This document shows, one piece after another, positions 770-61,950 of a stretch of 64,000 nt of DNA (positions are counted from its first letter, which is position 1; each line of letters begins with the position of its first letter). The DNA is from Patescibacteria group bacterium (GTDB taxonomy: Bacteria; Patescibacteriota; Minisyncoccia; Minisyncoccales; GWA2-38-27). The stretch is from assembly GCA_020148045.1 (NCBI GenBank), contig JAHCRG010000016.1:68-64067 (forward strand). The letters are read 5' to 3'. Below the pieces are notes generated by a model. That model had not been told where the DNA came from and did not search any database. It saw only the letters and a list, made by a program, of their open reading frames with translations. The position numbers were made by a program, and so were the translations under genes.

Positions 770-800
770 CATTGTATTTATCTTTTAAATAGAGTAAAAT

Positions 801-864
801 AAGAAATAAGAAACAAGAAACAGGAAACAAAACTCTTGTTATCTGTTACTTGCTACTTGTTACC
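801..864. repeat. heptamer-word hairpin (AAGAAAC units vs TTGTTAC units) between the kinase and receiver genes
   Basis: Left arm (AAGAAAT)(AAGAAAC)(AAGAAAC)(AGGAAAC). Right arm (TTGTTAT)(CTGTTAC)(TTGCTAC)(TTGTTAC). About 28 paired positions with periodic A-A mismatches. Ends 6 nt before ATG 871. Confidence 0.7.
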
Positions 865-870
865 TGACGT

Positions 871-1239
871 ATGGCAAAAAAAATTTTAATAGTTGAAGAC
901 GATAAGTTTCTTCGGGAGTTAATTGCTCAGAAACTTATAAAAGAAGGTTATGATATTGTTGAAGCAGTGGATGGAGAGAAGGGAATAAAAAGCGTTAAAG
1001 AGGAAAAGCCAGATTTAATTTTGCTAGACCTTATTTTACCGGGGATAGACGGATTTGAAGTTTTAGCTAAAATAAAAGAAGACCCAGTTCTATCTCAAAT
1101 TCCAGTGATTATTTTATCAAATCTCGGACAGAAAGATGATATAGAAAGAGGGTTAAAAATTGGAGCGGTTGATTATTTGATTAAAGCCCACTTCACCCCA
1201 GGAGAAATAATCGAAAAGGTTAAGGCCGTCCTTAAATAG
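871..1239 (+). CDS. single-domain response regulator (receiver only)
   Basis: CheY-like pattern: VEDD, DLILLDLILPG, SNLG, K near the C-terminus. Paralogous to 50418..50783. Confidence 0.9.
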   Translation: MAKKILIVEDDKFLRELIAQKLIKEGYDIVEAVDGEKGIKSVKEEKPDLILLDLILPGIDGFEVLAKIKEDPVLSQIPVIILSNLGQKDDIERGLKIGAVDYLIKAHFTPGEIIEKVKAVLK

Positions 1240-1347
1240 ATATTAGATATTAGATGCTGGATATTAGATAAATTGGATTTTGGATTTTAGATAGTTTCGC
1301 CTAACACCGCCTATCGCCTCACATCTATTATCCAACACCTAATATCT
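1238..1347. repeat. heptamer-word element (AGATATT/GGATATT units) with a partner arm, upstream of mutM
   Basis: Units from 1238: AGATATT AGATATT AGATGCT GGATATT AGATAAA TTGGATT TTGGATT. 1245-1269 pairs with 1323-1347 (25 positions, 3 mismatches). Confidence 0.65.
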
Positions 1348-1359
1348 GACACCCAATTT

Positions 1360-2235
1360 GTGCCGGAGCTTCCTGAAGTAGAAACAACAGTAAGAGGTTT
1401 ACGAACAAAGGTCCTTTCGAGGACCTTTATTGATGTGTGGACGGATACTAAAAAAATAATCAAGAAACCAAAAGATTTTGAGGAATTTAGGAAACAACTC
1501 AAAGGTAAAAAGATTCAAAAAATTTGGCGGAGAGGAAAAAATATTATTTTTGGACTTTCCAAAGATTATTCTCTTTTAATCCATCAGAAATTAACCGGCC
1601 ATCTTTTAGTTGGATATTGGATATTAGATAATGGATATTGGAAACCAAAAGAAAAAGGTCTCTTAGAAGAGAAAATTAACACCTACATTCACTTATTGTT
1701 TACATTAGATAATAGAAAAATGTTGGCTCTTTCTGATTTAAGGAAATTTGCCAAAGTTGAGTTGTGGAGAACAGAAGATTTAAAAAATTCAAAAGAACTG
1801 AAAAGTTTGGGGCCAGAGCCCTTAGAAAAGAGTTTTACCTTTGAAAAATTTAAGGAAGTTTTAGAAAATAAAAAAGGAAAAGTAAAACAGGTTTTAATGA
1901 ATCAAGAAATTATTGCTGGAGTGGGAAACATTTATTCAGACGAAACATTATGGGCAGCGAAAGTTCATCCATTTAGAGATGTTTCAAAATTAAAAGAAGA
2001 GGAACTCAAAAGAATCTATCAAGCCCTCAAGAAAATTCTCAAAAAAGCAATTAAGCTTCGGGGGGAAAGCATTTCTGATTATCGGGACCCGGCTGGCCGA
2101 AAGGGAAAATTTGATAAAATAAGAAAAGTTTACCGAAGAGAAGGAGAAAGATGTTCCCGTTGTGGAACAATTATCCAAAGAAAAAAAATCGGCAGCCGCA
2201 GCTGTCACTTCTGCCCTAAATGCCAAAAATTATAA
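1360..2235 (+). CDS. mutM: formamidopyrimidine-DNA glycosylase
   Basis: N-terminal PELPEVET catalytic motif. C-terminal zinc finger CxxC...CxxC (CSRCG...CPKC). GTG start. Confidence 0.9.
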   Translation: MPELPEVETTVRGLRTKVLSRTFIDVWTDTKKIIKKPKDFEEFRKQLKGKKIQKIWRRGKNIIFGLSKDYSLLIHQKLTGHLLVGYWILDNGYWKPKEKGLLEEKINTYIHLLFTLDNRKMLALSDLRKFAKVELWRTEDLKNSKELKSLGPEPLEKSFTFEKFKEVLENKKGKVKQVLMNQEIIAGVGNIYSDETLWAAKVHPFRDVSKLKEEELKRIYQALKKILKKAIKLRGESISDYRDPAGRKGKFDKIRKVYRREGERCSRCGTIIQRKKIGSRSCHFCPKCQKL

Positions 2236-26107: not shown

Positions 26108-26114
26108 ATTATTG

Positions 26115-26186
26115 TGCGCACGGATGGATTCGAACCATCAACCTCGGCCTTATAAGGACCTTGCTCCGCCATTGAGCTACGTGCGC
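26115..26186 (-). tRNA. tRNA-Ile(UAU)
   Basis: Acceptor GCGCACG/CGTGCGC, anticodon stem AGGTC/GGCCG (one mismatch, one G-U), loop CTTATAA, T-loop TTCGAAT. Confidence 0.75.
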
Positions 26187-30359: not shown

Positions 30360-32832
30360 AGAACAGAAAACAACAAGCAAAGTGGGGAGTATAAGGGATC
30401 GGGAGATAACCGAAGAGATGAGAGAGTCCTACATTGATTACGCAATGTCAGTTATTATTTCGCGAGCCCTTCCTGATGTTCGCGATGGCTTAAAACCTGT
30501 TCATCGCCGAATTTTGTATGCCATGCACGAGATGGGACTAGGATATACTGCTAAATTTAGAAAATCGGCTGCCGTAATTGGAGAAGTTCTTGGGAAATTC
30601 CATCCTCACGGCGACCAGGCAGTTTATGATGCTGCAATGAGAATGGCTCAAGATTTTTCATTAAGATATCCTTTGATTCAAGGACAAGGGAATGTAGGCT
30701 CTATTGACGATCCGAGCGAGTTTGCAGCTATGAGATATACCGAGATGAAGCTCTCAAAAATTGGCGAAGAAATGTTAAGAGATATTGGAAAAGATACAGT
30801 TGATTTTAGACCTAACTATGATGGTACAAGAAAAGAACCAATAGTTTCACCCTCTCCTCTGCCTCAACTTCTTTTAAATGGTTCTTTGGGAATTGCCGTT
30901 GGGATGGCTACTAATATCCCTCCTCACAATCTTTCTGAAGTTTCAGACGCTTTAATTTACTTGATTGACCATCCTAAGGTAACAATCGAGGACCTTTTTA
31001 AATTCATCAGAGGTCCGGATTTCCCAACCGGAGGGGCAATTTTTGGCAAAAAAGAAATAATTTCCGCCTATTCTCAAGGGAAAGGGCCAATTGTAGTTCG
31101 TGGGAAAGCAGAGGCAGTGGAAAAAAAGGAACGGCGTCAACAAATTATTATTACTGAGATTCCTTTCCAAGTTCAAAAGTCAAGTTTAATTGAGCAGTTT
31201 GCCAAATTGGTTCAAGACAAAAGAATTCAAGGGATAAAGGATATCAGGGATGAATCAGACAGAGAAGGGATGAGAATTGTGCTTGACCTTCAAAGAGACG
31301 CTTATCCCAAGAAGGTTTTAAACCGGCTTTACAAGTTTAGTGATTTGCAAAAAACCTTTCATCTAAATATGTTAGCCCTGGTAGATGGAATTCAGCCAAG
31401 GGTATTATCGCTTGTTGACTTTTTAAATTATTTTATCGTTCACAGGAAAGAAGTGGTTGTTAGAAGGACAAAATATGATTTAGAGCGGGCCAAAGAAAGA
31501 ACCCATATTTTAGAAGGTTTAAACAAGTGCCTGACAAAGATTGATGCGGTAATAAAAACGATTAAGGCCTCAAAAAATAGAGAGGAAGCTCAGAAGAATT
31601 TAATCAAGAAATTTAAATTAACTGAAATTCAGGCTAATGCTATTTTAGAAACAAAATTAGCTGCTTTGGCAAAGTTAGAAAGAAAGAAAATTGAGGATGA
31701 ACTTAAAGAAATGCGGGCTAAAATTAAAGAGTTTACGGCAATTCTTAAAAGCCCTCAGAAAATAAAAGAAGTTGTCAAAAAAGAATTAGAAGAACTTAAA
31801 GAGAATTTTGGGGATGAAAGGAAAACAAAAGTTTTTGCTCAAAAAGTTGGAGAGATTGCAGAAGAGGATTTAATCCCCTTAGAGGAGACAATTATTACCT
31901 TAACCCGGGGGGGTTATATTAAGAGAATAAATCCTGCCACTTATAAAATTCAAAGAAGAGGAGGAAAGGGGATTTTGGGAATGAAAACCTTACAGGATGA
32001 TGTTGTTGAGCATTTTCTTTTAGCTCAGACACACGACTCATTGCTTTTCTTTATTGATTCGGGAAAAGTTTTCAGAACTTTGGTTTATGAAATTCCTGAA
32101 GGGGCACGGGTGGCTCGGGGCAGAGGCCTTTTGAATTTCATTGAGGTTTCCCCTGAAGAAAAGGTTTTATCTTTAATGACTCTCGGTAAGGAGGACATCA
32201 ATCTGGGGATAAAAAATTTAGTAATGGTAACCCAAAATGGTATAATAAAGAAAACTGCTTTGGGGGAGTTTAAAAATGTTCGGAGGTCCGGCTTGATTGC
32301 AATAAAACTTAGAAAAAGCGACCTTTTAAAAAAAGTTGCCAAGAGCACCGGCCAAAATGAGATAATTATAGTAACAAAAAAAGGCCAATCCATCCGATTT
32401 AAAGAGCAAGATATAAGAGAAATGGGGAGACCGGCTTCGGGTGTCAAGGGAATTAGGTTAAGAAAGGGAGATAAGGTGGTGGGGATGGACATGATAGAAC
32501 AAGAAACAAGAAACAAGAAACAAGAAACAAGAAAATATTTATTAGTAGTGACAGAGAATGGGTATGGGAAGAGAACAGATTTGAGAGAATACAAATTGCA
32601 AGGAAGAGGAGGAACGGGCATTAAAACAGCTAATATTACTACCAAAACCGGAGAACTGGTTGCCTCAAGGCTTTTAACAGGCGAGGAGGAAGATTTGATT
32701 GTTATTTCTCAAAAGGGTCAGGTAATTAGGGCAAAGATTTCCTCAATTCCCAAAATCAGCCGAGCAACTCAAGGAGTAAAAATAATGAGATTAGACGAAA
32801 GAGACAAAGTTGCTTCAGCCACCTGCATTTAA
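30352..32832 (+). CDS. gyrA: DNA gyrase subunit A
   Basis: [19 protein letters not shown] (catalytic Tyr), C-terminal beta-pinwheel repeats. Contains an in-frame heptamer repeat at 32497-32535. Confidence 0.95.
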
Positions 32833-32834
32833 AC

Positions 32835-33362
32835 ATGAATCAGTCTTTTCTAAATCCAGAAGAAGTATTAGACCAACTTGAGCTGCGTCTGGATATGGTT
32901 GCAGCTGAGTTTGGTTGTGGTTCAGGCGGTTTTGCTATTCCTTTGGCAAAAAGATTGGAAGAGGGATTAGTTTATGGTTTAGATATTCAGCGAGCTCCCC
33001 TCTCTGCTTTAAAAAGCCGAGCCCTTTTGGAAAATATCACTAATATTAGAACTATCTGCTCTGATTTAGAAAAACCAAAAGGTTCAACATTAACTAGATC
33101 TTCAGTGGATTTGGTATTTATCCCCAACGTACTTTTTCAAATAAAAGATAAAAATGCTATAATATCAGAAGCAGAGAGAGTTTTGAAAAATAAAGGGAAA
33201 TTAGTAGTAATTGACTGGGCACCCAAGGCGCCCCAAGGACCTGAGGAGGGAAGGATTTCTCCAAAAGAAGTAAAAAAAATCACGGAGAAAATAGGATTTA
33301 AATTAGAAAAAGAATTTGAAGCAGGAAAATATCATTTTGGACTTATTTTTGAAAAACCCTAA
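32835..33362 (+). CDS. class I SAM-dependent methyltransferase
   Basis: AEFGCGSGGF motif I. Typical small methyltransferase length. Confidence 0.75.
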   Translation: MNQSFLNPEEVLDQLELRLDMVAAEFGCGSGGFAIPLAKRLEEGLVYGLDIQRAPLSALKSRALLENITNIRTICSDLEKPKGSTLTRSSVDLVFIPNVLFQIKDKNAIISEAERVLKNKGKLVVIDWAPKAPQGPEEGRISPKEVKKITEKIGFKLEKEFEAGKYHFGLIFEKP

Positions 33363-33365
33363 AAT

Positions 33366-33419
33366 CATTTTAACATTTTAACATATGCTTGCATGTTTAA
33401 ATGTTTATATGTTAGAATG
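33366..33419. repeat. octamer array: CAT every 8 nt, then ATG every 8 nt
   Basis: CAT at 33366, 33374, 33382. ATG at 33393, 33401, 33409, 33417. Upstream of the gene at 33428. Confidence 0.75.
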
Positions 33420-33427
33420 AATCATTA

Positions 33428-33781
33428 ATGAAACCCTATCTATCCAAATTAATATTTTTCTTGCTGTTAATTTCTTTTCTTATTCCCTTAACAGTTCAAG
33501 GAGTTACAATTGAGAATCCTTTAAAAGCTCAAAGTTTCTGGGATTTGATAGATAAACTTATTGATTTTATATTTTACCTTGCCATAGCCATAGCTCCGAT
33601 AATGTTTATTGTTGCTGGATTTTACTTTATAACAGCAGCCGGCGACCCAGAAAAAATCCAGACAGCTAAAAAAATGATTCTCTGGGTTCTAATTGGATTA
33701 CTTATTGTTTTTTTAGCTAAAGCATTGATTGTATTTTTTGTAGAAATGTTTGGTATACCAATACCGCCAACAACACCTTAA
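33428..33781 (+). CDS. TrbC/VirB2-like small pilin-type membrane protein
   Basis: Signal peptide plus two TM helices joined by AAGDPEK...AKK. Paralogous to the next gene. Confidence 0.45.
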   Translation: MKPYLSKLIFFLLLISFLIPLTVQGVTIENPLKAQSFWDLIDKLIDFIFYLAIAIAPIMFIVAGFYFITAAGDPEKIQTAKKMILWVLIGLLIVFLAKALIVFFVEMFGIPIPPTTP

Positions 33782-33840
33782 AATTATAACCGTTATAAAT
33801 TATAAAGGTCGACCTCAAACTTAATAACTTTGACAAAAAA

Positions 33841-34176
33841 ATGAAAAAAGTTTTAGTAAGCTTGATTTTAACAAGTCTTCTATCTATTCCAGTATTGGCA
33901 TTAGCACAGGCACAACCAGGTCCTATTACTGCGCCCGGCTGGTTAACTTACGATGTCGTAGATACGCTCGACAGTGTCACTAATTACCTTTTTGGATTTT
34001 TATTAGTTATAGCTGCTATCGCCATTATAATTGCTGCTTACTTTTTTGTTACAGCAGCCGGAGATCCCGATAAGACAAAAAGAGCAAGAGATTTTGTTAT
34101 GTATGCTGTGATTGGAGTGTTAGTAGCTTTCCTTGCCAAAGGATTAGTGATGCTTGTAAGTTATGTAGCAAGGTAA
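33841..34176 (+). CDS. TrbC/VirB2-like small pilin-type membrane protein
   Basis: Signal peptide, two TM helices, AAGDPDKTKRARD loop. Confidence 0.45.
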   Translation: MKKVLVSLILTSLLSIPVLALAQAQPGPITAPGWLTYDVVDTLDSVTNYLFGFLLVIAAIAIIIAAYFFVTAAGDPDKTKRARDFVMYAVIGVLVAFLAKGLVMLVSYVAR

Positions 34177-34219
34177 CATAATCTTTTTAGGTAGACTAAA
34201 AGAATAATATTTGTATTGT

Positions 34220-34290
34220 AACCCCGTTAGAGGTTCTTTCGTTTTGTGCTTTCATCTTAGCGTTGTAACCTCTAACGGGGTTGATTTTTT
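34220..34290 (+). terminator. long-stem terminator after the second mini-pilin gene
   Basis: Perfect 16-bp inverted repeat AACCCCGTTAGAGGTT (34220-34235) / AACCTCTAACGGGGTT (34267-34282), followed by GATTTTTT. Confidence 0.65.
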
Positions 34291-34315
34291 ATATAAAAAA
34301 GGTATAATAAAAAAA

Positions 34316-34397
34316 GCCCTCGTGGTGGAACTGGAATACACGCGTGGTTTAGGACCACGTCCTGAAAAGGTTGCGGGTTCGAATCCTGCCGAGGGCA
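34316..34397 (+). tRNA. tRNA-Leu(UAG)
   Basis: Acceptor GCCCTCG/CGAGGGC, anticodon loop TTTAGGA, long variable arm, T-loop TTCGAAT. Confidence 0.85.
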
Positions 34398-34398
34398 C

Positions 34399-34426
34399 AA
34401 AAAACCGCCCGATAAGGCGGCTTTTG
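34399..34426 (+). terminator. terminator after tRNA-Leu(UAG)
   Basis: CCGCC...GGCGG stem followed by CTTTTG. Confidence 0.6.
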
Positions 34427-34461
34427 TTTACTGTTTACTGTTTACTGTTTACTGTTTGCTG
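34427..34461. repeat. tandem heptamer repeat (TTTACTG x4 plus one variant)
   Basis: Read directly, in the convergent spacer between the tRNA-Leu terminator and the hsp20 stop. Confidence 0.85.
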
Positions 34462-34464
34462 TTA

Positions 34465-35825: not shown

Positions 35826-37855
35826 TTTTCAATCATTAAGCATTTCGTTTTGTTCTTAATGGGTATTTTCTGATAAATTTCTTCTGTTATAAATGGAATA
35901 AATGGATGTAAAAGTTTTAAAGAAGATGATAGAACATAAAGTAAAATCTTTTGAGTTTTTTTATTATCTTGCTTTTTAGATGCTTCAATATATACATCAC
36001 AAAAATCATGCCAAAAGAAATTATATAAAGTATGGGTTGCCTTCCCAAACCGAAAATTCTCCAAATCATTATTAACTGACTTTGTTGTTTTGTTTAACTG
36101 TTTTAAAATCCTTTTATCCGCAGAGGTTAAATTCTTCTCCTTGGGTTTAGAAATTAGAAATTCGAAATTAGAAATTCCGATTTGTCCCAAGACAAATCGG
36201 CTTGCATTCCATATTTTATTACAAAACTTTTTCCCCATTATCATATTATCTTTTACAAATCTCATATCTTGGCCTCCCATAATTTGGTAGGCAATTCCAA
36301 AACGAGTAGCGTCAGCGCCATAGTCATTGATAAGATTTATCGGGTCTACGCCGGTGCCAAGGGACTTTGACATTCTTTTTCCCTCTCTGGTTAGGATAGT
36401 GCTATGAATATAAACATCTTTAAATGGAATTTTTTCCATAAACTCTATTCCAGAAAAAATCATCCGGGCAACCCAAAGATTTATTATATCTCGAGCAGTA
36501 CTCAAAACATCGGTAGGATAAAAAGTTTTAAGGTCTTTAACCGAAGAGGGCCAGCCGAGCGTGGCAAAAGGCCAGAGAGCAGAGCTAAACCAAGTATCTA
36601 AGACATCTTTTTCTTCTTTTAAGGGAATCTTATGGCCCCACCAGATTTGGCGGGAAATACACCAATCTTTTATATTTTTCAGCCAATCAAAATATGGTTT
36701 TTCAAAACTTTTGGGATGAAATTTTATTTTACCCTCTTTTACTGGTTTTTCTGCCATTTTAGCTAATTTGTCCATTTTCAAAAACCATTGCTTAGAAAGA
36801 ATTGGTTCCAGAACAGTATTACATCTATAACAACGGGCAATATTATGGGTATATGGTTCTGTTTTCTCCAAAATTCCAATTTTTTTCATATCTTCTACAA
36901 TCTGCTTTCTCGCTTTCATCACCGTGAGCCCAGCATATTTTTCAGCCAGTTTTGTCATTCGTCCATCCGGACCGATTACTTGTTTTTTTTCAAGTTTGTA
37001 TTTTTCGCCTATTTCAAAATCATGAAGATCATGGGCAGGTGTTACCTTCATAGCGCCGGTACCAAAACTCATATCAACTGCTCTATCTCCAATAACCTTC
37101 ATTTTATTTTTACCTAAAACGGTTTGAATAACAATGGTTTTACCAATGTATTTTTTATATCTCGGGTCTTTCGGATTCACCGCCACGGCGGTGTCACCTA
37201 ATTTTGTTTCCGGCCTAACCGTAGCAATGGTAATAGGCCCGTATTTAATGTAATACATTTCAGCTGGTTCTTCTTTATATACAACCTCAAGGTCTGACAA
37301 ACTTGTGTAACATCTTGGACACCAATTAACAGCTCTTTTTCCCCGATAAATCCACCCCTTTTTATAATAATGTAAAAAGGCCTCTTTAACTGCAAGAGAA
37401 TAATCTTTATCCATAGTGAATCTGGTTTTGGACCAATCGCAAGAGCAGCCCAATTTTTTTAACTGGTCTAAAATAATATCTCCGTATTTATCTTTCCATT
37501 TCCATATTTCCTTGATGAATTTTTCTCGGCCCAAATCAAATCTGGTTAAGCCCTCTTTTTTAAGTTTTTTCTCAACTACGTTTTGGGTAGCAATTCCGGC
37601 GTGGTCTGTTCCAGGGAGCCAAAGGGCTTTAAATCCCTGCATTCTTTTCCAACGAATTAGAGTATCTTGAATAACTGCATTCAGAGCATGGCCCATATGA
37701 AGTCCGCCAGTAACATTTGGTGGAGGGATAACAATTGTATATGGCTTTTTGTGGCGTTTGGGAAGTTTATCTGGATTGAAAAAACCACTCTTAAGCCAGA
37801 GCTTATAGATTCTGTCTTCAACGTCTTTAGGACTATAAGTTTTAGATAGTTTCAT
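35810..37855 (-). CDS. valS: valine--tRNA ligase (short form)
   Basis: PPPNVTGGLHMGH (HIGH) and KMSKSLG motifs, plus the CP1 editing region. Confidence 0.95.
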   Translation of the reverse strand: MKLSKTYSPKDVEDRIYKLWLKSGFFNPDKLPKRHKKPYTIVIPPPNVTGGLHMGHALNAVIQDTLIRWKRMQGFKALWLPGTDHAGIATQNVVEKKLKKEGLTRFDLGREKFIKEIWKWKDKYGDIILDQLKKLGCSCDWSKTRFTMDKDYSLAVKEAFLHYYKKGWIYRGKRAVNWCPRCYTSLSDLEVVYKEEPAEMYYIKYGPITIATVRPETKLGDTAVAVNPKDPRYKKYIGKTIVIQTVLGKNKMKVIGDRAVDMSFGTGAMKVTPAHDLHDFEIGEKYKLEKKQVIGPDGRMTKLAEKYAGLTVMKARKQIVEDMKKIGILEKTEPYTHNIARCYRCNTVLEPILSKQWFLKMDKLAKMAEKPVKEGKIKFHPKSFEKPYFDWLKNIKDWCISRQIWWGHKIPLKEEKDVLDTWFSSALWPFATLGWPSSVKDLKTFYPTDVLSTARDIINLWVARMIFSGIEFMEKIPFKDVYIHSTILTREGKRMSKSLGTGVDPINLINDYGADATRFGIAYQIMGGQDMRFVKDNMIMGKKFCNKIWNASRFVLGQIGISNFEFLISKPKEKNLTSADKRILKQLNKTTKSVNNDLENFRFGKATHTLYNFFWHDFCDVYIEASKKQDNKKTQKILLYVLSSSLKLLHPFIPFITEEIYQKIPIKNKTKCLMIEKWPKS

Positions 37856-37866
37856 GTAGGTTCATT

Positions 37867-38919
37867 TTAACATATTTTTAAATTAGCATCAGCTTTAATT
37901 TTCTTCCAGGGTTTGCCCTTTCCTTTGAGCCAATTGAAATATCCTGCTATTCCTATCATTACTGCATTGTCAGTACAGAACTTAAAACTTGGAACCTGAA
38001 ACCTGAAACTTAATTTTTCTTTTTGAATTCTTCGTTGGAATTGCTTACGGAGTTCTTTATTGGCTGAAACGCCGCCCCCTAAAATTATGCTTTCCGCTTT
38101 ATAATCTTTTGCTGCTTTGATGGTTTTTTTAACCAGGACATCAATAATTGCTTGTTGAGTTTCTTTACACATTTCCCGAATATATTTCTTACTTTTTCTT
38201 ATCCTTTGGGGCTGGGTTTTAAAATTATACAAAACAGCAGTTTTCAGGCCAGAGAAACTAAAATCATAATTTTTCTGCTTTATCATCGGCCTCGGCAAAC
38301 TGACAGAGGACGGGCCTCTGTTCGTTCTGCTCGCTTCAATGGCGATAGCTGGTCCTCCGGGATATTCAAGGCCTAAAATCTTAGCTACTTTGTCAAAACA
38401 TTCTCCTGCCGCGTCATCCCTTGTTTCTCCAAGAATTTTGTATTTCCCAAAATCTTTCATTAATATCAATTGCGTATGCCCCCCGCTTACCACTAAACAA
38501 ATCGCCGGAAATAACTGTTCTTTGTTCTTTGTTTTTTGTTCTTTGATGAAGTTGGCAAAGATGTGCGCTTCAATATGGTTAACTGGTACAATCGGCAAAT
38601 TCCAGAAATTCGCCAGGGCTTTGGCAAAGTTTACTCCTACCCACAAACAAGGCTCCAAGCCAGGCCCAACGGTTACTGTGATTAAATCAATTTTAGGGTT
38701 TTTTGCTTTCTTTAATGCTTTTTCCAACACAAGAGGCAGATTCTTTTGGTGTTCTCTTTTGGCTAGAGTAGGGTATACTCCTCCCCATTTTTTATGAATT
38801 TCTACTTGCGAAGAAACAATATTTGATAAAATATTAAAACGAGGACGTCTTTGTCCTTTTGCTTCTATAATTGCTACGCAAGTATCATCGCAGGATGTCT
38901 CTATTGATAAAATATTCAT
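37867..38919 (-). CDS. tsaD: tRNA N6-adenosine threonylcarbamoyltransferase TsaD
   Basis: ILSIETSCDDT, VSGGHT, GGVSAN, CTDNAVMI motifs. Two in-frame heptamer-repeat tracts. Confidence 0.9.
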   Translation of the reverse strand: MNILSIETSCDDTCVAIIEAKGQRRPRFNILSNIVSSQVEIHKKWGGVYPTLAKREHQKNLPLVLEKALKKAKNPKIDLITVTVGPGLEPCLWVGVNFAKALANFWNLPIVPVNHIEAHIFANFIKEQKTKNKEQLFPAICLVVSGGHTQLILMKDFGKYKILGETRDDAAGECFDKVAKILGLEYPGGPAIAIEASRTNRGPSSVSLPRPMIKQKNYDFSFSGLKTAVLYNFKTQPQRIRKSKKYIREMCKETQQAIIDVLVKKTIKAAKDYKAESIILGGGVSANKELRKQFQRRIQKEKLSFRFQVPSFKFCTDNAVMIGIAGYFNWLKGKGKPWKKIKADANLKIC

Positions 38920-48249: not shown

Positions 48250-48522
48250 ATGGCTGTTAAATTTATTAAAGAAAGAAAAAAACAAAGGTATTTAATTATA
48301 GGTTTTGGGATAATGCTTGTAGCTATTAGTATTGTTTTGTGGTCAGGATATTTTAAAAAGGAAGAGCCTATCGCTCCTCCAGTTTCGGTCATTCCTCTTA
48401 GAGAAATAAAAATAAATTTTGAAGTTTTAGAAAATCCGTTCTTGAAAGAACTTCAACCTTTTGTAGAGATTTCTCCCTTTGTAGGTGAAAAGGGACGAGA
48501 GAATCCATTCTTACCGTATTGA
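48250..48522 (+). CDS. small bitopic membrane protein of the pilMNO operon
   Basis: One TM helix. Its stop codon forms the base of the 27-bp hairpin preceding pilB. Confidence 0.4.
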   Translation: MAVKFIKERKKQRYLIIGFGIMLVAISIVLWSGYFKKEEPIAPPVSVIPLREIKINFEVLENPFLKELQPFVEISPFVGEKGRENPFLPY

Positions 48523-48610
48523 AACTTGAAACTTGAAACTTGAAACATTATTGATTGATAAGAATGTTTTCAAAATAAAATAAGTTTTAAGTTTTAAGTT
48601 TTAAGTTTCA
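48520..48610 (+). repeat. 27-bp hairpin of heptamer words (GAAACTT)n / (GTTTTAA)n spanning from stop codon to start codon
   Basis: 48520-48546 pairs base-for-base with 48584-48610: 24 Watson-Crick pairs plus 3 G-U pairs. 37-nt loop. Confidence 0.85.
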
Positions 48611-50331
48611 TGACATTAGTTCAGCAATTAGTTAAAAAAGGGGCATTGGAAAAGTCAAAGGCTACTGCCCTGGAATACGAAATCAAGACTTCCGGACGAA
48701 GAGAAGAGGAGGTAATCTTAGAAAAAAGAATAGTTTCTGAGGATTTTCTATTTGGTTTAAAAAGCGAAAGCCTAAAAATACCTCTAAAGATAGTTTCTCC
48801 TAGAGAGGTTCTCTTGAAAGTTTTAGAAACAATCCCTGAGGAATCAGCCAAATATTACCGGATGATACCTTTAACCAAAGAAGACAGTCGTTTGGAGATA
48901 GGAATGGTTTATCCTGAGGATTTGAAAGCTCGAGAGGCCTTGGAGTTTTTAGCTCGCCAAAACAAATTTAGCTACCGGATTTTCTTAATTACCTTAACGA
49001 ATTTTAACGAACTTTTAAAGAAATACCGGACCCTAAGGAAAGAAGTAACCAGGGCTTTGGAAGAATTAGAGACCGAACTCAAAGTAGAGAAGGTTAAAAA
49101 GGTTGGAATAGCTGAGGTTGAAAGAATGGTAGAGGAAGCCCCGATTTCAAAAGTGGTGGCAGTTATATTAAGACACGCTGTTGATGGAAATGCTTCTGAT
49201 ATTCATATTGAGCCGGGCAGGGAAAAATTACGAGTCAGATTCCGATTAGACGGCGTATTACATGCCAGTATTTTTTTACCCCTTAGAATTCTTCCTGCCG
49301 TAGTAGCCAGGGTTAAAATCCTTTCTAATCTAAAAATAGATGAGACCCGAGTTCCCCAAGATGGCCGATTTTCTACTAAAATTGAGGATAGAGGTATTGA
49401 TTTTCGGGTTTCTACTTTTCCAACTACCTTGGGAGAAAAAGTAGCAATAAGAATTTTAGACCCTGGTCAAAGGAAAGTGGAATTTAAAGAACTGGGGATA
49501 ACTGGAAGAAATCTTAAAGTAATAGAAAAAGCATTGAAAAAACCTTATGGGATGATTTTAGCTACCGGCCCGACAGGTTCAGGTAAAACCACTACCCTTT
49601 ATGCTGTTTTAGGACTTTTTAATAAAGAAGAGGTAAATATAATGACTCTGGAAGACCCGGTAGAATATTTTATGGAAGGAGTTAACCAATCTCAGGTAAA
49701 ACCGGAAATTGGCTATAGTTTTGCTAACGGTCTTCGCTATACTTTAAGACAGGACCCTGATATTTTAATGGTAGGAGAGATTAGAGATGAAGAAACTGCC
49801 TCTTTAGCTATCCATGCAGCTTTAACCGGGCATATCCTGCTTTCTACCTTACATACGTCAAATACTCTTGGAGTAATCCCAAGATTGGTTGATATGGGGA
49901 TACAGGCATTTTTAATCCCCCCTACTTTGAGTTTGGCTCTTGCTCAAAGGTTAGTAAGAAAGCTTTGTCCTCATTGTAAAAGAAAGGTGAAAGCAAATGA
50001 AGAAGCAAGAAAATTACTTTTGGAAGAAATAGAAAAGTTTCCGTCAACTATTAAAAAGAGCGTTGGGCCGACCAAAACCCTTTATGTTCATGAGCCAGTG
50101 GGTTGTAAAAGGTGTAATAATGTAGGTTATTCCGGGCGAATTGGAATTTTTGAAATTTTGGAAATGACTGACCGGCTCGGAGAAGTAATTTTAAAAGAGC
50201 CCTCTGAAGCTAAAATTCAAGAAGAAGCTAAAAATCAAGGAATGATAACAATGAAACAGGATGGAATATTAAAAGTTTTGGAAGGTACTACATCTATTGA
50301 GGAAGTGCTGAGAGTGGCCGAAGAGAAGTAA
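48610..50331 (+). CDS. pilB: type IV pilus extension ATPase PilB (GspE family)
   Basis: Walker A GPTGSGKTT, Asp/His boxes, tetracysteine CPHC...CKRC, N-terminal MshEN-like domain. Confidence 0.95.
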   Translation: MTLVQQLVKKGALEKSKATALEYEIKTSGRREEEVILEKRIVSEDFLFGLKSESLKIPLKIVSPREVLLKVLETIPEESAKYYRMIPLTKEDSRLEIGMVYPEDLKAREALEFLARQNKFSYRIFLITLTNFNELLKKYRTLRKEVTRALEELETELKVEKVKKVGIAEVERMVEEAPISKVVAVILRHAVDGNASDIHIEPGREKLRVRFRLDGVLHASIFLPLRILPAVVARVKILSNLKIDETRVPQDGRFSTKIEDRGIDFRVSTFPTTLGEKVAIRILDPGQRKVEFKELGITGRNLKVIEKALKKPYGMILATGPTGSGKTTTLYAVLGLFNKEEVNIMTLEDPVEYFMEGVNQSQVKPEIGYSFANGLRYTLRQDPDILMVGEIRDEETASLAIHAALTGHILLSTLHTSNTLGVIPRLVDMGIQAFLIPPTLSLALAQRLVRKLCPHCKRKVKANEEARKLLLEEIEKFPSTIKKSVGPTKTLYVHEPVGCKRCNNVGYSGRIGIFEILEMTDRLGEVILKEPSEAKIQEEAKNQGMITMKQDGILKVLEGTTSIEEVLRVAEEK

Positions 50332-58453: not shown

Positions 58454-59245
58454 ATGGGAATTTTTTTTTATCCGATTATTTTTATTTTTGGTTTAGCTGT
58501 AGGTAGTTTTTTGAATTGCGTGATTTACCGGCTTGCCTTTCCAAGGGGCAGGTCTTTTTGTCCCTATTGCAAACACATATTATCTTGGCAAGACCTGATT
58601 CCGGTTTTAAGCTTTTTTATTTTACGAGGCAAATGCCGTTATTGCCTGAAAAAAATATCCTGGCAGTATCCATTAGTGGAGTTAGCTACAGGAATTTTGT
58701 TTATCTTGATATTGAATTATGAATTAGGAATTATGAATTATGAATTTTTTGATTTTAGAACTATTCTTAATTCTTTATTCTTAATTCTTACTTCCTGTTT
58801 TTTAATAATAATTTTTGTTTATGACCTGAAACATTTTATCATCCCCGATAAAATAATCTACCCAGCAATCGTAATTACTTTTTTATATAATTTAATTCTT
58901 AATTCGCAATTCATAATTCATAATTCAATTTTCGCTGCCTTGGGCGCAGCTCTATTTTTTTTATTTATTGTTCTTGTATCCCGGGGTCGCTGGATGGGTC
59001 TCGGCGATGTTAAGTTAGCATTTTTTATTGGTCTTTTTCTTGGCTTCCCCGATATCTTAATTGCCCTATTTTTTGCTTTTCTAATTGGTGCTATAATAGG
59101 AGTAGGACTAATTTTAGCAAAAAGGAAGACCTTAAAAAGCGAAGTGCCCTTCGGACCATTTCTGGTAACCGGCACATTTATTGCTTTATTTTGGGGTCCA
59201 ACAATTATTGATTGGTATCTTAATTTTGTAACCTATAACCTATAA
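58454..59245 (+). CDS. pilD: prepilin peptidase (A24 family)
   Basis: N-terminal CxxC...CxxC. Two Asp motifs (VYDLKHFIIPD, GLGDVKL). Start moved to ATG 58454. Confidence 0.85.
   Translation: MGIFFYPIIFIFGLAVGSFLNCVIYRLAFPRGRSFCPYCKHILSWQDLIPVLSFFILRGKCRYCLKKISWQYPLVELATGILFILILNYELGIMNYEFFDFRTILNSLFLILTSCFLIIIFVYDLKHFIIPDKIIYPAIVITFLYNLILNSQFIIHNSIFAALGAALFFLFIVLVSRGRWMGLGDVKLAFFIGLFLGFPDILIALFFAFLIGAIIGVGLILAKRKTLKSEVPFGPFLVTGTFIALFWGPTIIDWYLNFVTYNL
58714..58746. repeat. heptamer-word arm (GAATTAT units) inside pilD, left arm
   Basis: GAATTAT GAATTAG GAATTAT GAATTAT GAATT. Complementary to 58894-58926 at 29 of 33 positions, plus one wobble. Confidence 0.8.
58894..58926. repeat. heptamer-word arm inside pilD, right arm
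   Basis: AATTCTT AATTCGC AATTCAT AATTCAT AATTC. Confidence 0.8.
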
Positions 59246-59251
59246 CTCATA

Positions 59252-59869
59252 ATGACTTGTTCCACGTTTCACTTAATTGCGAAGCAATTACAAGGAGCGA
59301 AGCGACTGGTTCGTGCTTCAAGTTTCAAGAAGAAGGGGTTTTCTCTAACTGAATTTCTGATAGTAATAAGCATTATTGGTATTTTTTCAGCAATAACTTT
59401 TCCTAATTATCGCTCCACTCAGCAGCAACTTATTCTTCAACGCTCAGCAAGTAAATTAGCCCAGAATATAAGGAAAGTTCAGGAGATGGCAATATCGGCA
59501 AAAGAGTGTCCTCCCTCAATCTGTGGAGGGCCGGGGTCAATAATTCCACCAGGATATGGAATTTATCTGAAAAAAGATGATTTAGATTATTTACTATATG
59601 CTGATGTCAATCCAGCAGCTGGAAATGAAAAATACGATTCTGGCAATGATAAAGTAGTAGAAACTATTCCCCTGGAAACAGGAGTAGAAATAAAGAGTGT
59701 TTCCCCGGCCTCTATGAGCATAAATTTTAAGCCACCTGACCCTGAAGTAAAAATATCTGGAACTGATACTGATGATGCCGCCGAGGCAGTAATTACTCTC
59801 GTCGTTGAAGGTACTTCATTTGAGAAAAAAATTATAGTTAATAAAGCAGGCCTAATTTATGTGGAATAA
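59252..59869 (+). CDS. minor pilin (FimT/GspH-like) with 29-aa leader
   Basis: KKKG|FSLTEFLIVISIIGI prepilin site. No in-frame ATG closer to the site. Confidence 0.65.
   Translation: MTCSTFHLIAKQLQGAKRLVRASSFKKKGFSLTEFLIVISIIGIFSAITFPNYRSTQQQLILQRSASKLAQNIRKVQEMAISAKECPPSICGGPGSIIPPGYGIYLKKDDLDYLLYADVNPAAGNEKYDSGNDKVVETIPLETGVEIKSVSPASMSINFKPPDPEVKISGTDTDDAAEAVITLVVEGTSFEKKIIVNKAGLIYVE
59259..59331 (+). repeat. 73-nt module shared by two minor-pilin 5' ends, copy 1
   Basis: 70 of 73 nt identical to 59911-59983. Contains two GCGAAGC mini-hairpin motifs and GTTTCAAGTTTCAAG words. Confidence 0.85.
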
Positions 59870-59910
59870 TAACTTAAAACTTTATTTTTATTCAAAGTTT
59901 CAGGTTTCAG

Positions 59911-59983
59911 GTTCCATGTTTCACTTAATTGCGAAGCAATTACAAGGAGCGAAGCGACTGATTCGTGTTTCAAGTTTCAAGAA
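59911..59983 (+). repeat. 73-nt module shared by two minor-pilin 5' ends, copy 2
   Basis: See copy 1. The remainders of the two genes are dissimilar. Confidence 0.85.
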
Positions 59984-60476
59984 AAGAGGATTCACTATTC
60001 TTGAAGTTATGATTGCTATTTTCGTTGTTACAATTGGAGTATTGGCTGCTCATACTGTGACCCAACAAATAATTTCTTATACTCATCGTTCTGCTTCCCG
60101 GCTTACTGCTATTTACCTTGACAAGGAGGGGATTGAAATTGTCAGGAATATAAGGGATACAAACTGGCTGGAAGAAGAATCCTGGAATTATGGTTTAGGA
60201 GCTGGAGATCGGGAAGCTGATTATACGAATGATCAGAATTTGTATGTTTGTTCTTCTCCTTGTGATCCTGATAATAATCTTAGATTTCTTAAGCTTGGGG
60301 CGGGTGGATTTTATAACTATTCCTCTGGAGTTGATACGAAATTTAAAAGAAAAATTACAATTACACCTGTTGGCAATACCTTGGAAGTTTCTGTTGAAGT
60401 ATGGTGGGAATATAAAGGTGACACTTATGGACCGATTAAAGCTCAAGAAAATTTATATGATTGGTATCCAGAATAA
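59916..60476 (+). CDS. minor pilin (PilV-like) with 25-aa leader
   Basis: KKRG|FTILEVMIAIFVV. Start taken at ATG 59916. Confidence 0.65.
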   Translation: MFHLIAKQLQGAKRLIRVSSFKKRGFTILEVMIAIFVVTIGVLAAHTVTQQIISYTHRSASRLTAIYLDKEGIEIVRNIRDTNWLEEESWNYGLGAGDREADYTNDQNLYVCSSPCDPDNNLRFLKLGAGGFYNYSSGVDTKFKRKITITPVGNTLEVSVEVWWEYKGDTYGPIKAQENLYDWYPE

Positions 60477-60492
60477 CAATCATCTAAACATT

Positions 60493-60543
60493 ATGTTTAA
60501 ATGTTAGAATGTTAAAATGAGGAAATGTTTAAATGTTAAAATG
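60493..60543 (+). repeat. octamer array: seven ATGs exactly 8 nt apart
   Basis: ATG at 60493, 60501, 60509, 60517, 60525, 60533, 60541. The last is the MNRG|F prepilin start. Confidence 0.85.
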
Positions 60544-61059
60544 AATAGGGGTTTTACCTTAGTAGAGATGATGGTTACTGTGCTTATCTTTTCTATAGTT
60601 ATCGGAACTGTTATCGGGGTTTTTGTCTCAGCTCTTCAAATACAAAGATATAATTTAGCTTATCAACAACTTTTGGACCAGACCAGCTATGCCATGGAAT
60701 ATATGAGCCGGGCAATAAGAATGGCAGTCAAAGATGAGGGTGTAGGTTGTATAAGCTCAGGATTAAATTATCAGAGTGATGCCTCAGGAATAAAATTTGT
60801 AAATTATAAAAGCCAATGTCAAGAGTTTTTATTGGAAGGCGGTCAGCTAAAAGTAGAATTTGATTCAGGAGGTAAAATTCCTCTAACCTCAGATGATTTT
60901 AATGTAACTTCTCTTAGTTTTGGAATTTCTGGCGAATCAGACGAAGATAATCTTCAGCCAAGAGTAACAACCTTTATGGAAATACAAGGGAAGGGCTCGA
61001 AACTTCAGCCAAAAGTAACCATTCAAACTACTATTTCCCAAAGAAACCTTGATTTTTGA
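60541..61059 (+). CDS. minor pilin (PilW-like)
   Basis: MNRG|FTLVEMMVTVLI. The alternative in-frame ATG at 60517 is part of an ATG-octamer array. Confidence 0.65.
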   Translation: MNRGFTLVEMMVTVLIFSIVIGTVIGVFVSALQIQRYNLAYQQLLDQTSYAMEYMSRAIRMAVKDEGVGCISSGLNYQSDASGIKFVNYKSQCQEFLLEGGQLKVEFDSGGKIPLTSDDFNVTSLSFGISGESDEDNLQPRVTTFMEIQGKGSKLQPKVTIQTTISQRNLDF

Positions 61060-61115: not shown

Positions 61116-61409
61116 ATGATACCTGAGAAAATAGATAAAAAATCTCTTTTATACTTTATAATTTTTGTAATAACTATCCTTGTTTTTGTTGGCTTTTTCT
61201 ATTATCTTTCTCAAATACTGGAAATGGAAGAAGGGAGGGAGCCGATTAAAGAGGAAAGAATTACCGAAGAGATTCTGAAGCAATTCGGAGCTCCTAATGT
61301 GGAAGGAAGAGAAATCCCAAAAGAAACTTTAAAACAATTCGAAGCTCCCAATGTGGAAGGAAAGGAAATTCCAGAGGAGATTTTAAGACAATTTGGAACT
61401 TCTGAATAA
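61116..61409 (+). CDS. small bitopic membrane protein with tandem 16-aa repeats
   Basis: One TM helix, then about 2.5 copies of E.LKQF.APNVEG.EIP. Confidence 0.4.
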   Translation: MIPEKIDKKSLLYFIIFVITILVFVGFFYYLSQILEMEEGREPIKEERITEEILKQFGAPNVEGREIPKETLKQFEAPNVEGKEIPEEILRQFGTSE

Positions 61410-61506
61410 ATATACCAACCTTTCAACATAAAAAAATAACTAAATTATCGAGGCGGGATCTCCATAACTAATATTATTGAGGTCCAACCTCAATAATTAT
61501 TAAAAT

Positions 61507-61950
61507 ATGAATAAAAAAATCTCTCCAAAATTAGTTGCTTTAATCTTTGCTATTTTAGTTATCTGTTTTGCGATAGGTTTTTATGTCTTTGCCTGGACAG
61601 AGCCGGAAGAAGGTCCTCCCGAAGAAAATGTCTTTGCTCCTTTGAATGTTAGCTCCAACGCCCAAGTTAAAGTTGGTGGTTTAATTCTTAATACCGGCGG
61701 ATTCTCTGTTGGTTTAGCTGTTGATCAGGGCAGCGTCGGCATCGGGACACTAACTCCGGCGGCTGGTTATAAGCTTGACGTAGAAGGAAAGATTCAGGCA
61801 ACCGCCTTTGATACAGGAGATATCACTTTCAGGAACCAGGAAACTAATCAGATACTCTGGAGAATGTTTGAAGATGAAGATGGATTATATCTAGAGAATG
61901 CAAAGACAGGGAAAGTTTACAAGTTTGTCTTAGAGGAATTATCAGAATAA
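61507..61950 (+). CDS. N-terminally anchored pilus-locus protein
   Basis: One TM helix, then WTEPEEGPPEENVFAPLNVS...QVKVGGL motif. Confidence 0.4.
   Translation: MNKKISPKLVALIFAILVICFAIGFYVFAWTEPEEGPPEENVFAPLNVSSNAQVKVGGLILNTGGFSVGLAVDQGSVGIGTLTPAAGYKLDVEGKIQATAFDTGDITFRNQETNQILWRMFEDEDGLYLENAKTGKVYKFVLEELSE

Follow-up and report, generated by a model that had tools for sequence, protein, structure and literature searches.

Heptamer arrays in the window and in related genomes

The stretch analyzed here (the window; 64,000 nucleotides (nt) of contig JAHCRG010000016.1, assembly GCA_020148045.1, from a Patescibacteria group bacterium, positions 68 to 64,067 of the forward strand) carries short tandem arrays of 7-nt words, both in intergenic DNA and inside genes that include gyrA, valS and tsaD. 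A first, sequence-only reading had noted such tracts in gyrA, valS, fpg, pilD and at two sites of tsaD. All of them are present, and their positions and peptides agree with the output of Tandem Repeats Finder (TRF) and with the translated open reading frames (ORFs), whose gene identities were checked with Pfam. The gyrA tract (32498..32534, + strand; the sequence of 32497-32535 is GAACAAGAAACAAGAAACAAGAAACAAGAAACAAGAAAA) is (ACAAGAA)x5.3 with 100% matches in TRF and lies in a hypervariable loop of the C-terminal domain of GyrA, a protein of 826 residues with the Pfam domains DNA_topoisoIV and DNA_gyraseA_C. It had been described as four AAGAAAC units plus a variant; the tandem heptamers are real, and in the ACAAGAA register they are five perfect copies. 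The valS tract (36147..36176, - strand; (AATTTCT)x4 on the coding strand, 4.3 copies and 91% in TRF) encodes ISNFEFLIS in the loop that opens the anticodon-binding domain. Its four units, previously given as identical copies of TAGAAAT, are three perfect units and one TCGAAAT variant; on the coding strand one unit has changed from AATTTCT to AATTTCG, which removes an in-frame TAA (TAA to GAA). Two sites were found in tsaD, both on the - strand: loop 1 (38516..38545; (CAAAGAA)x4 on the coding strand, 4.3 copies, 91%) encodes KEQKTKNKEQ, and segment 2 (37977..38011) is an imperfect heptamer array (3.6 copies and 83% at 37985-38009 in TRF) whose peptide, SFRFQVPSFKF, immediately precedes the CTDNA motif. 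The fpg tract (1610..1642, + strand), (TTGGATA)x4.7, encodes VGYWILDNGYWK. Finally, pilD contains three tracts on the + strand, (TGAATTA)x4.9 at 58713-58746, (ATTCTTA)x4.6 at 58763-58794 and (TAATTCA)x5 at 58893-58927; the third is complementary to the first, and in the third unit of the first a TGA has become GGA (TGAATTA to GGAATTA).

A scan over repeat periods revealed a clear excess of 7 over the others, in the window and in its relatives alike. Period-7 entries account for 21 of the 80 TRF rows in the window, several of them at 100% identity. Exact period-7 arrays of at least 3 copies occur four times in the window and not once in any of 50 dinucleotide-preserving shuffles of it. When arrays of at least 4 copies with at least 80% self-match were counted, 14 were found at period 7, one at period 9 and none at periods 6, 8 or 10-15; the density of period-7 tracts in the window is about 22 per 100 kb. 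Scanned in the same way, 50 kb of E. coli K-12 DNA surrounding gyrA gave no period-7 tracts. With at least 3-4 copies of a 7-nt unit arranged head to tail, these tracts are heptanucleotide simple sequence repeats.

The GyrA relatives retrieved from genome and metagenome collections all belong to Patescibacteria (the candidate phyla radiation, CPR) and are named Nealsonbacteria, Parcubacteria or Paceibacteria; the window itself derives from a Nealsonbacteria-like genome of an uncultured, ultra-small CPR bacterium. Among 80 related loci (1.15 Mb) we counted 104 period-7 tracts, versus 18, 4 and 3 at periods 6, 8 and 9. Similarly, 160 relatives' loci together with the window (2.08 Mb) hold 202 period-7 tracts versus 40, 4 and 7 at these periods, so that here too unit length 7 is commoner than its neighbors. 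An excess over chance and over neighboring unit lengths is the property that marks the long simple sequence repeat (LSSR) class. Of these 202 arrays, 141 (70%) lie wholly within open frames of at least 120 codons, as do 87% of random segments; intergenic DNA is thus about 3-fold enriched in arrays per nucleotide, yet the majority of arrays are coding. Decayed arrays are also visible: 1077 windows of 35 nt have at least 17 of 28 matches at lag 7, compared with 391-515 at other lags, and recognizable and decayed arrays together come to about 600 in the 2.08 Mb, or one per 3-4 kb. Arrays become sparser as GC content rises: their density is 19.3 per 100 kb where GC is below 34% and 3.5 where it is 42% or more. 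The heptamer process is therefore clade-wide and not peculiar to the genome of the window. The earlier proposal of a genome-wide process whose heptamer tracts are tolerated inside conserved proteins is in this respect borne out and extended.

The tracts occur in dozens of independent assemblies and are for that reason not an assembly artefact. Strain-level variants of the window were sought in two ways: GyrA scans of the genome and metagenome collections gave nothing closer than 92% identity, and look-ups of exact protein matches led to nothing but the source scaffold (scaffold_14, 182.5 kb, of ENA assembly ERZ23498930, sample SAMN13740702) and Logan contigs of run SRR10836662, the other source of this genome's DNA. 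The Logan contigs are independent of the scaffold, and over the tsaD and pilD tracts their sequence is that of the window, which also speaks against an artefact. A further Logan contig of this run, L165, is identical to window positions 32504-34454; it begins in one perfect heptamer tract (that of gyrA) and stops in another (the intergenic tract at 34425). This suggests that the assembly graph branches at the tracts, which is compatible with, and no proof of, heterogeneity among reads.

Recurrence at the loops of essential proteins

The coding tracts were placed by alignment with solved structures. The gyrA tract falls inside a 9-residue insertion relative to the C-terminal domain of M. tuberculosis GyrA, the valS tract inside a 7-residue insertion relative to T. 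thermophilus ValRS and the tsaD loop 1 tract inside a 5-residue insertion relative to T. maritima TsaD, while the fpg tract lies in a loop longer than that of Lactococcus Fpg. PilD gave no match to a solved structure, and an orthologue alignment was used instead. Its tract peptides, LNYELGIMNYE and LILNSQFIIHNS, are kept in some PilD orthologues and are swapped for the heptamer-type FNFQFSIFNFQ or deleted in others. Peptides derived from heptamers (ISNFEFLIS, FNFQFSIFNFQ and NFEFLISKQF) were also seen to recur in unrelated proteins of different species, such as the PilD orthologues P0026, P0044 and P0051 and the valS product of the window. This recurrence follows from how common the AATTTCN class of unit is, and peptides of this kind are a possible source of spurious local similarity in protein searches.

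The same loops hold arrays in other species, and the arrays there are again of period 7. The GyrA loop varies in length from about 2 to 40 residues among 80 orthologues. In 40 of 157 orthologues it contains a period-7 array of at least 3 copies with at least 85% self-match; the corresponding counts are one each at periods 5, 8 and 9 and zero at period 6, which would stay in frame. The units differ from one relative to the next: (AAATTCA)4 in locus L007, (AAGGTCA)5 in L021, (GAAAGTC)5 in L032, (CAAGCTA)4 in L050, (AAATGCA)4 in L071, (AAAGCTC)5 in L155 and (AAAACTC)5 in L110. Heptamer arrays were likewise found in the ValRS loop of 12 of 57 orthologues, in TsaD loop 1 of 10 of 47 and in TsaD segment 2 of 6 of 48, with essentially none at other periods. 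At TsaD loop 1, four species carry arrays in phase and of equal length that are built from different units, (CAAAGAA)4, (CAAAGTT)4, (CAAAGCT/GTT)4 and (CAAATTC)4; in a fifth species the array is deleted and in a sixth a GC-rich palindrome stands in its place. Independent point mutations cannot change the unit in every copy of an array, so homogenization is required, either by conversion or by contraction followed by re-expansion.

GC-rich palindromes of this sort were observed in frame at other sites as well. They occur in the GyrA loop of L064, L091, L141, L135, L024, L153 and L154 (for example, CCCGCC...GGCGGG) and, as ACGCGGCCGGGTCGCGT, in TsaD loop 1 of L081. Some of them interrupt a heptamer array, and they look like terminator-like hairpins inserted in coding sequence. 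They may be a second kind of loop filler.

Array dynamics and competing explanations

Change by whole units was observed at the intergenic tract that lies 3′ of a tRNA-Leu gene (34425..34463, + strand; unit TGTTTAC, about 5.6-5.9 copies). Between near-identical flanks, this tract has 5.9 units in the window, 4.9 in the related locus L082 and 1.9 in L081 and L001. In the same loci the gyrA tract is constant in length and differs only by substitutions; comparing tract lengths between relatives, as the sequence-only reading had proposed, thus gave whole-unit change at the intergenic site and no length change in gyrA. One of these substitutions, in L081, is an identical A-to-G change in two adjacent units. 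More generally, across all arrays, non-consensus bases match those at the same phase of the adjacent unit 180 times versus 65.8 expected, which indicates that variants spread to neighboring units. The lengths of exact runs in coding DNA are bimodal, runs of 23-30 nt being scarce and a second peak standing at 31-38 nt, a distribution that would fit a seed plus 21 nt.

Selection on the reading frame is evident in the coding arrays. For 37 of 130 such arrays, the consensus unit would place an in-frame stop in every third unit, and in the real sequence that position is mutated. The corresponding stop-avoidance statistic (77 vs 33.5) is partly circular, in that open frames cannot hold stops, and it serves here solely as a sign that coding constraints leave the consensus units unaffected. 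Because consensus units would create stops that are mutated away in the real arrays, the periodicity is imposed at the DNA level regardless of coding, and selection vetoes the lethal positions. In the orthologues examined, the conserved motifs on either side of the arrays are read in a single frame.

Based on these results we consider the tracts to be probably heptanucleotide microsatellites that are prone to slippage or conversion and are filtered by reading-frame selection. A DNA-level process in this AT-rich CPR lineage would preferentially make, homogenize, lengthen and shorten tandem arrays in a 7-nt register, with replication slippage or intra-array conversion as the likely cause; we infer this molecular cause, and likewise slippage within the coding tracts. 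In intergenic DNA, copy number would drift freely by whole units, and inverted copies would form hairpins. In genes, selection would retain only those outcomes that preserve the frame, are free of stops and fall in structurally permissive segments, which would account for the shortness of the coding arrays (about 4-5 units). The survivors would be read as 7-residue pseudo-repeats in hypervariable surface loops of conserved essential proteins, and such loops would be long-lived array sites at which related species hold arrays, often in phase, with a different unit. A process of slippage-prone heptamer microsatellites, one of two possibilities raised from the sequence alone, is thus supported by the period-7 excess and by whole-unit change at the intergenic tract. 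In our view it is a mutational peculiarity of the lineage as a whole, and no new mobile element is involved.

Several observations count against this explanation. Insertion or deletion of three units is not demonstrated as the main route of change in genes: when orthologous loops whose units are related were compared, no enrichment of 21-nt length differences was seen (19 pairs, compared with 20 at 18 nt and 23 at 24 nt). The median length of a loop is nearly the same with and without a tract (138 vs 132 nt in gyrA, 141 vs 141 in valS and 114 vs 114 in tsaD segment 2). Segment 2 of tsaD is 114 nt long in nearly all orthologues, so that a period-7 signal exists there without any change of length, and in-place conversion or exactly compensated insertions and deletions are needed. 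Lastly, slippage does not in itself explain the preference for 7 nt; the polymerase-footprint idea of Mrazek et al., as relayed by later papers, is offered as a hypothesis only.

In tsaD segment 2, mean self-match over 26 orthologous sequences is nevertheless 0.446 at lag 7, versus 0.27-0.30 at lags 3-6 and 8 and lower values at lags 9 and 10; at the multiples of 7 it is 0.40 (lag 14) and 0.42 (lag 21). The tract at 37977-38011 can be aligned to T. maritima TsaD with no gap, each residue having its counterpart, and because the length of the segment is fixed across orthologues this tract is not an insertion. The description of the tracts as inserted accordingly fits only in part: the tracts of gyrA, valS and tsaD loop 1 lie in length-variable loops with extra residues, loops with and without a tract are nearly equal in length, and at this site the tract overlies a segment of constant length.

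These features are what would be expected of a lineage-specific templated process in a 7-nt register that overwrites sequence with a copy of its neighbor and leaves length unchanged, a refinement of slippage and conversion that we hold to be possible, though clearly the less probable form. Transient misalignment and realignment, or mismatch correction in a slipped heteroduplex, could serve as its mechanism, and loops and fixed-length segments would be rewritten continually. Besides the gapless 114-nt segment, it would accommodate the near-equal lengths of loops with and without tracts, the arrays of TsaD loop 1 that share length and phase but not unit, the gyrA tract of L081, which is as long as that of the window and has the same change in two adjacent units, the lack of enrichment of 21-nt multiples among length differences, and the 37 of 130 coding arrays that lean towards a unit whose perfect repetition would be lethal. 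On the other hand, compensated insertions and deletions under strong length selection could mimic this pattern, whole-unit length changes do occur where they are allowed (the 34425 tract), a clean 21-nt (three-unit) difference exists, the sole one, between L160 and L124/L055, and we know of no documented mechanism with a 7-nt offset. It is correspondingly a tentative suggestion that such an in-place process turns arrays over faster than species diverge, supplies a major part of the loop sequence in the essential proteins of these reduced genomes and reaches even the segment next to the CTDNA motif of TsaD.

The composition of the units bears on the remaining alternatives. Among 188 non-redundant arrays there are 85 canonical units, of which the commonest accounts for 11, so that no unit or small set of units dominates in the manner of the single-word families discussed below. 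The units have 21% GC, versus about 36% for the genomes, and typically consist of a run of A plus 2-4 other bases. Two arrays were taken to share a unit when their units agreed with no more than one mismatch in any rotation and on either strand, and sharing was compared with a permutation null. Arrays no more than 600 nt apart share a unit in 36% of pairs versus 13.5% after permutation (p<0.001), and half of the sharing pairs are direct and half inverted. Beyond 600 nt within one locus, sharing is no higher than in the permuted data (14.7% vs 13.5%, p=0.35). A genome-specific word or a mobile family as the source of the arrays was rejected on this result. Inverted partners were found for only some of the tracts (fpg, pilD and intergenic ones), and none was found within several hundred nt of the gyrA, valS and tsaD tracts; the inverted pairs look like local inverted copies of arrays and not like a dispersed family.

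Some of the inverted pairs can form extensive hairpins. Upstream of fpg, TAGATAT/TGGATAT and TTGGATT arrays and their complement at 1321-1357 make up a hairpin (1237..1357, + strand) whose arms, at 1237-1270 and 1321-1357, belong to the same unit family as the tract within fpg. An AAGAAAC-like tract of 4.9 units (797..865, + strand) lies between genes for a histidine kinase and a response regulator, and CTTGTTA-like heptamers that follow farther downstream are the predicted pairing partner of its 797-830 part. In pilD, the region 58700-58940 folds with z = -4.8, the tract at 58713 pairing with that at 58893. Another of these structures involves an intergenic pair, (TTGAAAC)x4 and (TAAGTTT)x4 (48519..48608, + strand). 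As RNA, the arrays at 48519 and 48581 form a stem of about 27 bp, including G-U pairs, that reaches the ATG at 48610; the fold of 48505-48625 has a predicted energy of -37.8 kcal/mol (z = -6.5), and its G-U pairs favor + strand RNA over DNA. This ATG is the start of a pilB-like gene of 573 residues that heads a pilus cluster. The modeled stem could occlude initiation of translation there.

Stems of this length, the latter ending at a start codon, would suit a functional role in cis, in which arrays are sites for a protein that reads single-stranded heptamers, or are regulatory or terminator hairpin blocks, with the coding copies selected or mere spill-over. The roughly 3-fold enrichment in intergenic DNA points the same way, as does the regulatory role proposed for the TAACTGA repeats that lie 5′ of start codons in Beggiatoaceae (PMC4679880). 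A role of this kind is improbable all the same: with 85 units there is no preferred word, distant tracts are unrelated, the gyrA, valS and tsaD tracts are solitary, the units at one loop vary between species and copy number varies between near-identical relatives.

The other possibility raised from the sequence alone was a small mobile palindromic family that inserts in frame, akin to miniature inverted-repeat transposable elements (MITEs) or Rickettsia palindromic elements (RPEs). RPEs are a precedent for in-frame insertion in essential genes, some of the tracts do occur in inverted pairs, and the same loops in relatives hold in-frame GC-rich palindromes. Nonetheless, dispersed copies have no sequence in common, there are no target duplications, and no palindrome or terminal inverted repeat accompanies every copy. 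The 85 units over 188 tracts, the similarity of distant tracts at the permutation level, the direct tandem arrangement of the gyrA, valS and tsaD tracts without an inverted partner and the variation by whole 7-nt units all run counter to such a family, which is largely refuted here and very unlikely. Weakest of all is selection at the protein level for 7-residue repeats or Lys/Gln-rich linkers with DNA periodicity as a by-product, which the hydrophilic, low-complexity character of the loops and the recurrence of a 7-residue motif (xPNxxYL / xPDxxFC) in tsaD segment 2 might suggest, but which is already contradicted, and scarcely credible, given that the signal is no weaker at lags 7 and 14 than at lag 21, unexpected for protein repeats, that arrays span only about 1.6 heptads, that identical arrays occur in intergenic DNA and that these loops hold next to no arrays of the in-frame periods 6 and 9.

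Known heptanucleotide repeats, neighboring features and significance

The sequence-only reading knew of no description of heptamer-periodic elements of this kind. Such elements are, however, on record: in prokaryotes, heptanucleotides outnumber every other class of repeats with units of 5-11 nt, with polymerase slippage proposed as their cause, according to the survey of Mrazek et al. (2007) as cited in PMC4679880 and PMC4692102, and tracts within genes have been reported in Geobacter metallireducens (PMC2700814) and in neuO (PMC13001214). The heptanucleotide microsatellite class has been known since 1990/2007. The LSSRs that Mrazek, Guo and Shah described in 2007 resemble the present arrays in their excess of 7 nt over neighboring unit lengths, their lineage-specific distribution and the proposed slippage (as cited in PMC4679880 and PMC4692102). 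That survey predates CPR genomes and, in the parts relayed by these papers, finds units in multiples of three likeliest in coding regions, whereas 70% of the heptamer tracts here are coding; recurrence at orthologous loops of essential genes likewise sets the present tracts apart from what is relayed of the survey.

Individual families offer closer parallels. The short tandemly repeated repetitive (STRR) sequences of Calothrix and Nostoc, GGGGA(C/T)T of Nostoc PCC7120 and GGGAATC of Xanthomonas also form many short arrays, typically of about 4 units, whose copy number varies between related species and which include some inverted pairs; unlike the 85 AT-rich units found here, none of them dominant, those families consist of one or a few G-rich words and are mainly intergenic (PMC4692102). 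In Geobacter metallireducens, as in the window, genes and the gaps between them both contain arrays of some four heptamers, but these derive from a single GC-rich consensus, GGACCGG, in 49 copies, which is detectable by BLAST and was read as regulatory RNA (PMC2700814); the present arrays have no consensus. The TAACTGA repeats of marine Beggiatoaceae are similar in having 2-6 copies, often just 5′ of start codons, and in that stops in some frames limit their placement, and differ in being a single word that is almost wholly intergenic and was possibly spread horizontally (PMC4679880). Coding heptamers are found in neuO of the E. coli K1 prophage CUS-3, where (AAGACTC)n encodes seven residues per three units and the reading frame is kept only by unit counts that are multiples of three (PMC13001214). 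That gene is non-essential and phase-variable; it carries 3-53 units close to its 5′ end and is out of frame in many strains (PMC13001214). The gyrA, valS and tsaD tracts do not resemble such a contingency locus: the genes are essential and housekeeping, the arrays are short (4-5 units) and mid-gene, and the orthologues examined stay in frame. A search of the literature on heptamer repeats in CPR or Patescibacteria returned nothing relevant. What appears to be new is that such arrays are found in CPR, that their AT-rich units are so diverse, that most of them are coding and that they recur at equivalent loops of essential genes from one species to the next.

A phase-variable role is possible for the tracts of a pilin-like gene, (GTTTCAG)x3.9 and (GTTTCAA)x2.1 (59897..59981, + strand), which fall in the first 43 codons of the listed ORF, upstream of the N-methylation motif. 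Two adjacent pilin-like paralogues of 205 residues each, 59252-59869 and 59859-60476, share stretches such as GTTTCACTTAATTGCGAAGCAATTACAAGG, and a Logan contig breaks at this paralogue repeat (59252-60476). Farther downstream, the ORFs 60517-61059 and 61507-61950 are separated by a stretch that includes a 54-nt tandem repeat (61281-61393; 2.1 copies, 83% matches), and there is a 29-nt repeat at 61435-61496. Directly 3′ of gyrA and a methyltransferase gene, two small genes (33428-34176) have Pfam matches of the T4SS_pilin/TrbC type. The window also encodes a tRNA-Ile with the anticodon UAU (26114-26186, - strand; predicted by ARAGORN), which is uncommon, AUA in bacteria usually being read by a lysidine-modified CAU tRNA.

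The usual view is that essential coding sequence does not admit microsatellites with non-triplet units; in these bacteria they are a recurrent, clade-wide part of it. In practical terms, the arrays break short-read assemblies, and their low-complexity peptides confuse alignments of marker genes such as gyrA; the arrays can also be used as strain-typing markers for uncultured Patescibacteria. The system further provides a testable handle on why 7 nt is the favored long repeat unit in prokaryotes, as array density can be compared with the content of replication and repair genes across CPR. It amounts to a natural experiment in which a repeat process at the DNA level and selection on the reading frame jointly shape protein loops. 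If the in-place process were true, it would give protein sequences a new way to evolve, one that stems from an oddity of the replication or repair machinery.

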